Below, piece by piece: positions 45,817 through 47,304 of a stretch of DNA of 64,000 nucleotides; position 1 is the first letter of the stretch; each line of letters opens with the position of its first letter. This DNA comes from Hydrolagus affinis (Eukaryota), in assembly GCA_012026655.1 (NCBI GenBank), contig JAAILG010000063.1, forward strand, positions 62,001-126,000, given 5' to 3'. The translations under genes were made by a program, and so were the position numbers. The notes beneath the pieces are model-generated. The model was not told the origin of the DNA, made no database searches, and saw nothing but the letters and a program-made list of their open reading frames with translations.

Positions 45817-47304
45817 ATGAAATCAAACAACTTGTATTCCTTCGGAATAGACGACCAAAACTTTTGTCCTTCCAAGACTTTCTCTGTGTGGCCTATCCCA
45901 CTGCCGCTGGAGATGCCGAAGAGAAAAACAGGCAAGCAAAAGATCTACGTGGTTCTGATTGTAATCTTTCTTCTTGTTGAACTGATAGGGCTCATTTTAG
46001 GTCTGTGCTTCCTATTTGATGTCCAACAGCAGCTGAACCAAGTGAGTCAGGTATATTTTAAATCATCGAAAGACTAATATTTCGTGTTTCTTTTTAATGA
46101 TTTGTCTTTGCACATGATTAAAAAATATATATATTTGCAGATCACTTCAGATTCACCGAAAGTCCCACAGAAGCTTATTGGTGAGTTGGTGTTTTACTTC
46201 ATATTTGGACCGGCTATGGAAGAGTTGCCAATAGAATGTGTATCAAATTCATGCAAATTGACCAAAGGCAATGGAAACTAAATCAAATAATGCGTTTTTG
46301 AGTTTCATAATGGATCGGGTTTTCATGCTGTGTCTGTAATCATTTTGTGTGGTGCAGGAAACAAAGACAAGGACAAGGCAAAGACGAAGAATGACATAAA
46401 AATTGTCGCACATCTTACAGGTCTGTAGTTACCGTCCCCTTCAAAGTGGTTAGCAGGGGGGAAATAAACTACATCTGGTAATGGCAAAGAGCAGGGTAAT
46501 AAAGAGTTAAACAAATAAAAGTTAAACAGTTTAACCAAAGAAAAAGCAAATGTGCAAGATAAATTGGGAGAAATATTCATGGGAAATTACAGAGAAAGAA
46601 TTAAAAATTATCAAAGAGAGACAAAATGACATTTAGAAAGATGAAAGGAAAGAGAGAGAGAGGAAATGTACTACTTTCGCTTATATATAAATAGAAACAT
46701 GTATTGCAAGAAAATAAGACAAACCACTACAAGGGATTATACTGCAACACTGTTCCTTGGAATTGAAGAACCTTTCCAATTCAATTAGTTTAATCTCTGC
46801 GAAGTTATAAATTAATTACATTGTATTCGAAGAAAACAACTTGGTACTTAATGGTACAATCTGAGCTTGGTAATAAATATTTAATTTCAAATTGTAGTTG
46901 CAGCCAAAGTTTCGGATGTGAATTCAACCACGCTGCTCTGGGAAGATAGAGTGGGATTTGCCTTTACTCATGCAGTGGCCTACAAGAATGGAGCGTTGGT
47001 CATCAATGAAACTGGATACTACTTTATTTACTCAAGGATCTATTTTCGAGGAATGGAATGTGAGCAACTCACATTGCAGCAGATTGTTTTCAGACACGGT
47101 CTAGAGTATCCAATACCTGTGGCTCTGATGGAAATTAGTGTAACCAACGAGAACTGTGTTGGTAGTAGAATGTGGGGCAAGAATACCTATCAGGCTGGAA
47201 TATTTCACCTGGATATAGGTGTGCATTTGTATGTCACTGTGTCGCATCCAAGAATGGTTGCTGTTCAGCAAACTACAAATTACTTTGGAATATATAAGCT
47301 TTAG
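45817..47304 (+). CDS. FasL-like TNF superfamily ligand, divergent paralogue A (~242 aa). Exons 45817-46041, 46141-46180, 46358-46420, 46904 (or 46898)-47304
   Basis: Type II TM exon 1 (KIYVVLIVIFLLVELIGLILGLCFLF), 40-nt exon 2, exon 3 ending VAHLT, TNF homology domain LLWEDRVGFAFT...LVINETGYYFIYSRIYFRG...YQAGIFHL...YFGIYKL*; all GT-AG, phases 0/1/1 as in the FASLG gene below. Confidence 0.93.

Follow-up and report, generated by a model that had tools for sequence, protein, structure and literature searches.

Gene A, on the forward strand of the window (the whole 64,000-nucleotide stretch that was analysed, G000:C63:62001-126000), is a chimaera gene orthologous to FasL-b, which belongs to a tandem of three death-ligand genes already known from sharks, rays and chimaeras. 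The two paralogues that follow it, genes B and C, are referred to here as FasL-a and FasL-c, respectively. The altered cytoplasmic tail and surface loops of gene A are real and, as judged from comparison of sequences, mostly ancient, and they would likely alter the trafficking and the killing strength of FasL-b.

The reading that we prefer, holding it with as much confidence as doubt, is that FasL-b is a subfunctionalised ligand of Fas or of decoy receptors with different trafficking, retained from a duplication that preceded the split between chimaeras and sharks. FasL-b would form trimers in the membrane and would still bind Fas or receptors of the DcR3/OPG type, with signalling that is probably weaker than, or differently tuned from, that of FasL-a. 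Without the N-terminal tyrosine motif it would escape regulated secretory-lysosome storage and reach the surface by another route. FasL-a, which has retained the ancestral tail and loops, would be the main killer ligand. Gene A itself is the expected orthologue of a named paralogue, and the anatomy at the level of the clade is possibly the useful part of the analysis. In cartilaginous fishes a single ancestral FasL gave rise to three; with one visible Fas-like gene and fixed changes in the tail and DE loop of FasL-b, the a, b and c copies form a natural comparison for the division of trafficking and receptor affinity after duplication.

Gene structure and genomic neighbourhood

The coding region of gene A extends from an ATG at 45817 to a stop codon ending at 47304, and its four exons are separated by GT-AG introns of phases 0, 1 and 1 (Table 1). 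Phases and exon layout are as in genes B and C, with the core of the TNF homology domain wholly in the last exon, and the exon sizes are nearly equal to those of gene B (234/40/63/401 versus 237/40/57/404 bases). The first-pass annotation, made from the DNA letters of the window, had described an intact frame of ~242 aa, which agrees with this gene model: splice alternatives yield products of 242-247 aa, of which the 242-aa product is the short-donor form and the 245-aa form matches the C. milii (Callorhinchus) orthologue at both junctions.

Table 1. Features of the FasL-b locus and putative receptor genes elsewhere in the assembly (positions refer to the window unless a contig or locus is given).
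Feature	Position	Strand	Remarks
Upstream SUN-domain gene (only some exons located)	5178..27046	+	SUCO by published synteny
FasL-b exon 1	45817..46050	+	234 bases (genes B and C: 237); alternative donor 46041; 44-residue cytoplasmic tail without Tyr motif and predicted type II transmembrane helix (residues ~45-63)
FasL-b exon 2 (stalk)	46141..46180	+	AG/GT ends; 40 bases, same as gene B
FasL-b exon 3 (stalk to AHLT, start of strand A)	46358..46420	+	matches P0001
FasL-b exon 4 (TNF homology domain)	46904..47304	+	alternative acceptor 46898; Cys165/Cys197, DE-loop Tyr181, Tyr239 at the gld-equivalent site
Candidate polyadenylation signal AATAAA	47367..47372	+	
Gene B (FasL-a), 245 aa, four exons	51993..54710	+	slow-evolving copy; 86% to C. 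milii 'Fas ligand member a'
Gene C (FasL-c) exon 1	63717..64000	+	65% to C. milii 'Fas ligand family member c'
Gene C remainder	L001:1717-3410		ends ~1.4 kb past the window; gene C as a whole ~238 aa, four intact exons
Fas-like gene (L037 + L025)	G000:C2873:23318-29644		Fas cysteine-rich domains on separate exons
OPG/DcR3-like exons	L016 (C805), L018 (C5440), L019 (C21128), L020 (C33572)		L016 most DcR3-like

Exon 4 matched the Pfam TNF model (PF00229; E 5.3e-27; 94.7 bits, cut-off 23), and its best solved relatives were human FasL (106 bits, E 2e-29) followed by LIGHT (TNFSF14; 68 bits). An AlphaFold model from an alignment of 38 rows (pLDDT 87) found its best fold match in the FasL chain of 4MSV (TM 0.89). 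Gene A shares with human FasL (4MSV, 5L19) the TNF jelly-roll and the four exons. A single hydrophobic stretch of 19 residues starts at residue 45 (hydropathy peak 3.15), and the type II topology of human FasL is predicted for gene A by transfer from the family; from the fold and the conserved core we infer a homotrimer. Identity to human FasL in the domain is ~40%, and gene A differs from it in having neither a proline-rich domain nor the YPYPQIY motif.

The two donors of exon 1 (46041/46050) lie 9 bases apart and the two acceptors of exon 4 (46898/46904) 6 bases apart, all in frame, and these pairs would permit small stalk and strand-A variants. Six ATTTA pentamers were counted within 600 bases 3' of the stop codon of gene A (window 47304-47900), and none for gene B; those of gene A would be relevant only in transcripts that extend past the AATAAA at 47367, which lies nearer. 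A promoter motif scan, run without a control, gave scattered short matches. Three single-cell RNA runs, in which the organism is not stated and which therefore do not bear on expression, contained 0 reads on gene A, and one of the three gave no more than 10 partial, repeat-like reads on gene B.

The position between SUCO and FASLG given by the first-pass annotation is correct. A SUN-domain exon (PF07738) was located upstream at C63:67178-67288 (window 5178-5288), which together with the published synteny places SUCO on this side as expected for TNFSF6, and two more FasL paralogues lie downstream. Two long open reading frames upstream of gene A (18862-20232 and 26612-27046) had no Pfam match and are presumably part of SUCO. 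TNFSF4 and TNFSF-F8, which are expected downstream, did not surface in searches of C63:52001-169695 that targeted neither.

Pairwise protein identities among the three paralogues are 42% (A-B), 36% (A-C) and 48% (B-C). Gene conversion among them was considered and rejected, DNA identity, confined to short stretches within the last exon, amounting to only 68-75%. A 68-base piece shared in the flanks is probably a repeat.

Orthology and prior description

The main phylogenetic tree was constructed from 42 of the 46 gathered rows, P0010, P0025, P0028 and P0033 being excluded as partial or outside FasL/LIGHT. Gene A was placed in a clade of ten FasL-b proteins from two chimaeras, four sharks and four batoids (support 100/100; stem length 0.52), and P0001 from C. 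milii was its sister (100/100). In a tree of the TNF domain only, for which P0047 was excluded as well (41 rows), the b clade was still recovered (100/99) and the sister pair was the same. Because the b clade spans chimaera, shark and ray proteins, the duplication is older than the chimaera-shark split. All 30 chondrichthyan copies grouped together in the main tree (97/92), and the a group was not recovered as a single clade. Gene A fell on the FasL side of the branch leading to LIGHT, the sister family, which lies outside the FasL clade (100/99). The earlier description as a divergent FasL paralogue holds. Forcing b and LIGHT together was 11.3 log-likelihood units worse, a borderline rejection only (p-AU 0.053).

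A recent, chimaera-only origin of the three copies was also evaluated by forcing the six chimaera genes together, and was rejected (p-AU 3.6e-11).

The nearest relatives of genes A, B and C are all C. milii proteins (71% identity for gene A and P0001; Table 1 for genes B and C), which points to a holocephalan other than C. milii as the source, and P0001 was the sole return of single-protein homologue searches. RefSeq lists P0001 (NP_001409414.1 / XP_007893803.1) and the protein of the white shark Carcharodon, P0193 (NP_001409415.1), as 'Fas ligand member b', and also names a white-shark 'member a' and a 'member a' and 'member c' of C. milii. The b copies of both species resemble gene A in lying in a SUCO-adjacent tandem and in having a tail without the tyrosine motif. 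C. milii b differs from gene A at the gld site (Cys versus Tyr) and at 40 of 138 domain residues.

The chondrichthyan TNFSF6 tandem, which like this locus lies beside SUCO and includes a b-type copy, has been published. Four tandem TNFSF6 genes, one of them probably a pseudogene, were described in Callorhinchus (Marin 2020, PMC7674686), and a later survey listed four copies next to SUCO for C. milii and three for the whale shark, with the b-type sequences of these two species and of skate included in its alignment (Marin 2025, PMC11762692). In this respect the locus studied here is unlike that of C. milii, as no fourth TNFSF6 copy or pseudogene was found beyond the three in C63:52001-169695. 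With the gene named in RefSeq and the tandem published in 2020 and 2025, novelty of the gene is not supported. The parts of the two papers that were considered here catalogue the copies and do not discuss tail motifs, loops, receptors or expression of single copies (PMC7674686, PMC11762692). Full-text literature searching found no functional study of single FasL-a, FasL-b or FasL-c copies. The TNFSF repertoire of sharks has reportedly been treated by Redmond et al., as cited in the later of the two papers, and that work may already describe part of this.

Cytoplasmic tail and trafficking

The N-terminal tyrosine motif was scored using a loose pattern of our own (Y-P-Q-V-Y-x-V-D type). It was present in all ten FasL-a proteins, 8/10 FasL-c, 6/7 FasL of bony vertebrates and 3/4 LIGHT proteins, and in none of the ten FasL-b proteins, so its loss is ancient and clade-wide and not peculiar to this genome. 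Gene A does not have the YxYPQVY motif seen in gene B, as had been noted earlier, and the sole remaining tyrosine of the tail is residue 7.

Sorting of human FasL to secretory lysosomes is influenced by phosphorylation of Y7/Y9/Y13 and by ubiquitylation of K72/K73, and the proline-rich domain serves to recruit the kinases; mouse FasL is without Y9 and Y13 (PMC2647539). Since these tyrosines affect sorting in human FasL, different trafficking of FasL-b is plausible. None of the tails of genes A, B and C contains a long proline-rich domain, and as the human route needs this domain the trafficking claim is an extrapolation. Of the earlier proposal of a rewired tail with altered trafficking, the loss of the motif (0/10 b versus 10/10 a) thus stands and the change in trafficking may be called plausible.

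Rays have a second FasL-b isoform (P0189, P0192 and P0194, database models from Mobula, Pristis and Hypanus) that has an alternative first exon, a shorter tyrosine-free tail and another membrane helix, and shares the downstream exons. No separate copy of such a first exon was found within the window. An additional c-type duplicate occurs in catsharks (Scyliorhinus P0015, P0199), from which the N-terminal tyrosine motif is likewise gone.

Receptor-facing loops and the gld site

The DE, AA' and GH loops were compared by alignment in human numbering for 10 b, 10 a, 8 c and 7 bony-vertebrate rows. Gene A keeps the cysteine pair of the CD and EF loops (Cys165 and Cys197, in the motifs RGMEC and NENC) and the DE-loop tyrosine (Tyr181, human Y218), all as in human FasL, and 7/10 residues of its AA' loop are identical to gene B. 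These retained residues argue for the preferred reading, that of a ligand still engaging Fas-type receptors. The differences from gene B quoted in the first-pass annotation (HGLEYPIPVALME versus TERYPKDIMLME; VAVQQTTNYFG versus VNFDESKTFFG) and all its other quoted motifs were found in the DNA. Relative to human FasL, gene A has no basic residue before the DE-loop tyrosine, E270/E271 are replaced by QQ, and F275 by Tyr.

The DE-loop tyrosine is retained in 9/10 b proteins. A basic residue stands at position 217 in 10/10 a, 5/8 c and 0/10 b proteins, and position 220 is Lys in 10/10 a and basic in 0/10 b. The acidic pair 270/271 of the GH loop is retained in 7/8 and 8/8 shark and ray b rows, and the gld site is Phe in 8/8 of them; the pair and the Phe are lost only in the two chimaera b copies, which have QQ (gene A) or KQ (C. 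milii) in the GH loop and Tyr239 or Cys at the gld site. At the level of the residues compared, constraint on the FasL-b core, loss of the tail motif across the b clade and loss of the basic DE-loop residues are evident.

The receptor in the LIGHT-HVEM complex is contacted by the DE, AA' and GH loops, and in FasL, LIGHT and TL1A alike the DE-loop tyrosine is important for binding the receptor (PMC8558838); the loop roles assumed here follow that complex. Human FasL with F275L, the gld change, is essentially without killing activity; the site lies near the trimer interface, and the change likely acts via trimer structure (PMC1931585). The absence of the acidic pair and of the gld-site Phe from the chimaera b copies therefore speaks against the preferred reading. 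Other FasL proteins vary at the same places: chicken FasL has Ser in place of the DE-loop tyrosine, and Tyr occupies the gld site in FasL of sturgeon, bichir and zebrafish, so that the missing Phe of gene A is not decisive. Tyr also occurs at the gld-equivalent site of LIGHT, and human LIGHT is without the acidic pair.

The location of the gld site near the trimer interface also bears on a possible role of FasL-b as a modulator, which would tune killing by co-assembling with FasL-a or FasL-c or by absorbing decoy receptors. Exon structure and core are common to the tandem paralogues, and the assembly has a decoy-like family of at least four exons; with genes A and B just 42% identical, we give this role only a slight probability.

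Candidate receptors and LIGHT

Among the 20 of 30 death-domain matches in the assembly that were examined, one Fas-like gene was found on contig C2873 (best PDB match Fas, E 1.5e-8). A cysteine-rich exon 6 kb upstream of its death domain also had Fas as best match, by a small margin, and a search with the death domain as query recovered, among 7 candidates, the query and one match at 28%. A second Fas-like gene was not found among these 20 of 30 matches in the fragmented assembly. At least four OPG/DcR3-like exons were identified among 11 contigs with TNFR domains, three by PDB comparison and one by alignment. One Fas-like gene together with the four OPG/DcR3-like exons is in line with the preferred reading. 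The predicted complex of three copies of the gene A domain with the L016 exon scored 0.17, below the mark of 0.34, and counts neither for nor against binding.

A different TNFR as the partner of gene A had been proposed in the first-pass annotation. In its broader form, FasL-b would have left Fas and would bind an HVEM-, LTbetaR- or decoy-type TNFR, possibly covering for LIGHT. The long stem of the b clade (0.52), the clade-wide change of charge in the DE loop (position 217) and the borderline result for b+LIGHT point in this direction. The same is true of LIGHT itself: no LIGHT orthologue was found in the assembly, where the best matches to ray LIGHT were the FasL genes (33-38%), and C. milii is likewise reported without LIGHT (PMC11762692). 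A loss of LIGHT in holocephalans may be real; absences from this assembly are weak, as it is fragmented into 245,464 contigs.

Several results stand against such a switch. Gene A is no closer to LIGHT than the other FasL copies, as its scores with ray LIGHT (65.5 versus 78.7 bits) and human LIGHT (68 versus 76) are below those of gene B, and its domain scored 228-271 against FasL and 167-193 against LIGHT, which favours the preferred reading instead. Rays have both FasL-b and LIGHT. The lack of a second Fas-like gene among the death-domain matches examined, the AA' loop largely shared with gene B and the equal variability of bona fide FasL at the DE-loop tyrosine and the gld site weaken the proposal further, and we regard a switch of receptor as doubtful.

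Evolutionary rate and selection

Differences from the C. milii orthologues at 138 domain sites numbered 40 for gene A, 18 for gene B and 38 for gene C. The domain of gene A has thus evolved 2.2 times faster than that of gene B (p=0.002) and at a rate similar to gene C (p=0.89), and the end branch on the TNF domain was 0.30 for gene A versus 0.08 for gene B. This faster rate, and tail and loop differences fixed clade-wide since before the chimaera-shark split, count against plain redundancy, in which FasL-b would be a dosage duplicate with the same receptor and the same killing; the fold and key residues are retained as it would predict, but we find it scarcely probable.

The differences of gene A from C. 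milii fell in 5/38 conserved columns versus 35/100 others (p=0.012). This sparing of the core supports the preferred reading. Departures from the consensus at the 38 conserved columns (6 for gene A, 1 for gene B) count against it.

A contig of a relative, in run X1, is ~98% identical to the window over gene A, and 29 of the 32 differences were listed. None of these 29 of 32 introduces a stop codon or shifts the frame within the coding exons of gene A, and the frame that is intact also in X1 again favours the preferred reading. The dN/dS-type comparison suggested in the first-pass annotation gave 7 replacement and 2 silent differences for gene A (29 of 32 listed) and 2 and 4 for gene B: the rate of gene A is about neutral (replacement 0.0124, silent 0.0117, from tiny counts), which counts against the preferred reading, but is not significantly unlike gene B (p=0.14). 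The counts are compatible with either relaxed or diversifying selection, the two not being separable. Six of the replacements lie in the domain (163, 179, 183, 190, 220 and 228), two of them flanking the DE-loop tyrosine and none in a conserved column (0/6; p=0.145 alone).

Relaxed selection would fit a FasL-b that is functional in sharks and rays and has drifted in chimaeras to a gld-like, poorly binding state. The near-neutral rate against X1, Tyr or Cys at the gld site of chimaeras versus Phe in 8/8 shark and ray b proteins, and the long end branch are what such decay would leave. Frame and splice sites are however intact in gene A, X1 and C. milii, the core columns and the conserved columns in the X1 comparison are spared, and gene C is equally fast, all with tiny counts; decay of the chimaera copy is in our view distinctly unlikely.

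Diversifying selection would belong to a neofunctionalised FasL-b restricted to cartilaginous fishes, which would have given up the ancestral sorting motif and altered the charge of its DE loop to read a receptor other than Fas. In chimaeras, where LIGHT appears to be lacking, a further remodelling would have affected the GH loop and the gld site, with the receptor-facing loops still diversifying under positive selection. The diversifying part is suggested by the replacements at 163, 179, 183 and 228 between genomes ~1.5% apart, and the reading as a whole is rather unlikely. Non-coding divergence from X1 was also higher around gene A than around gene B (20/1163 versus 21/2313, p=0.045).
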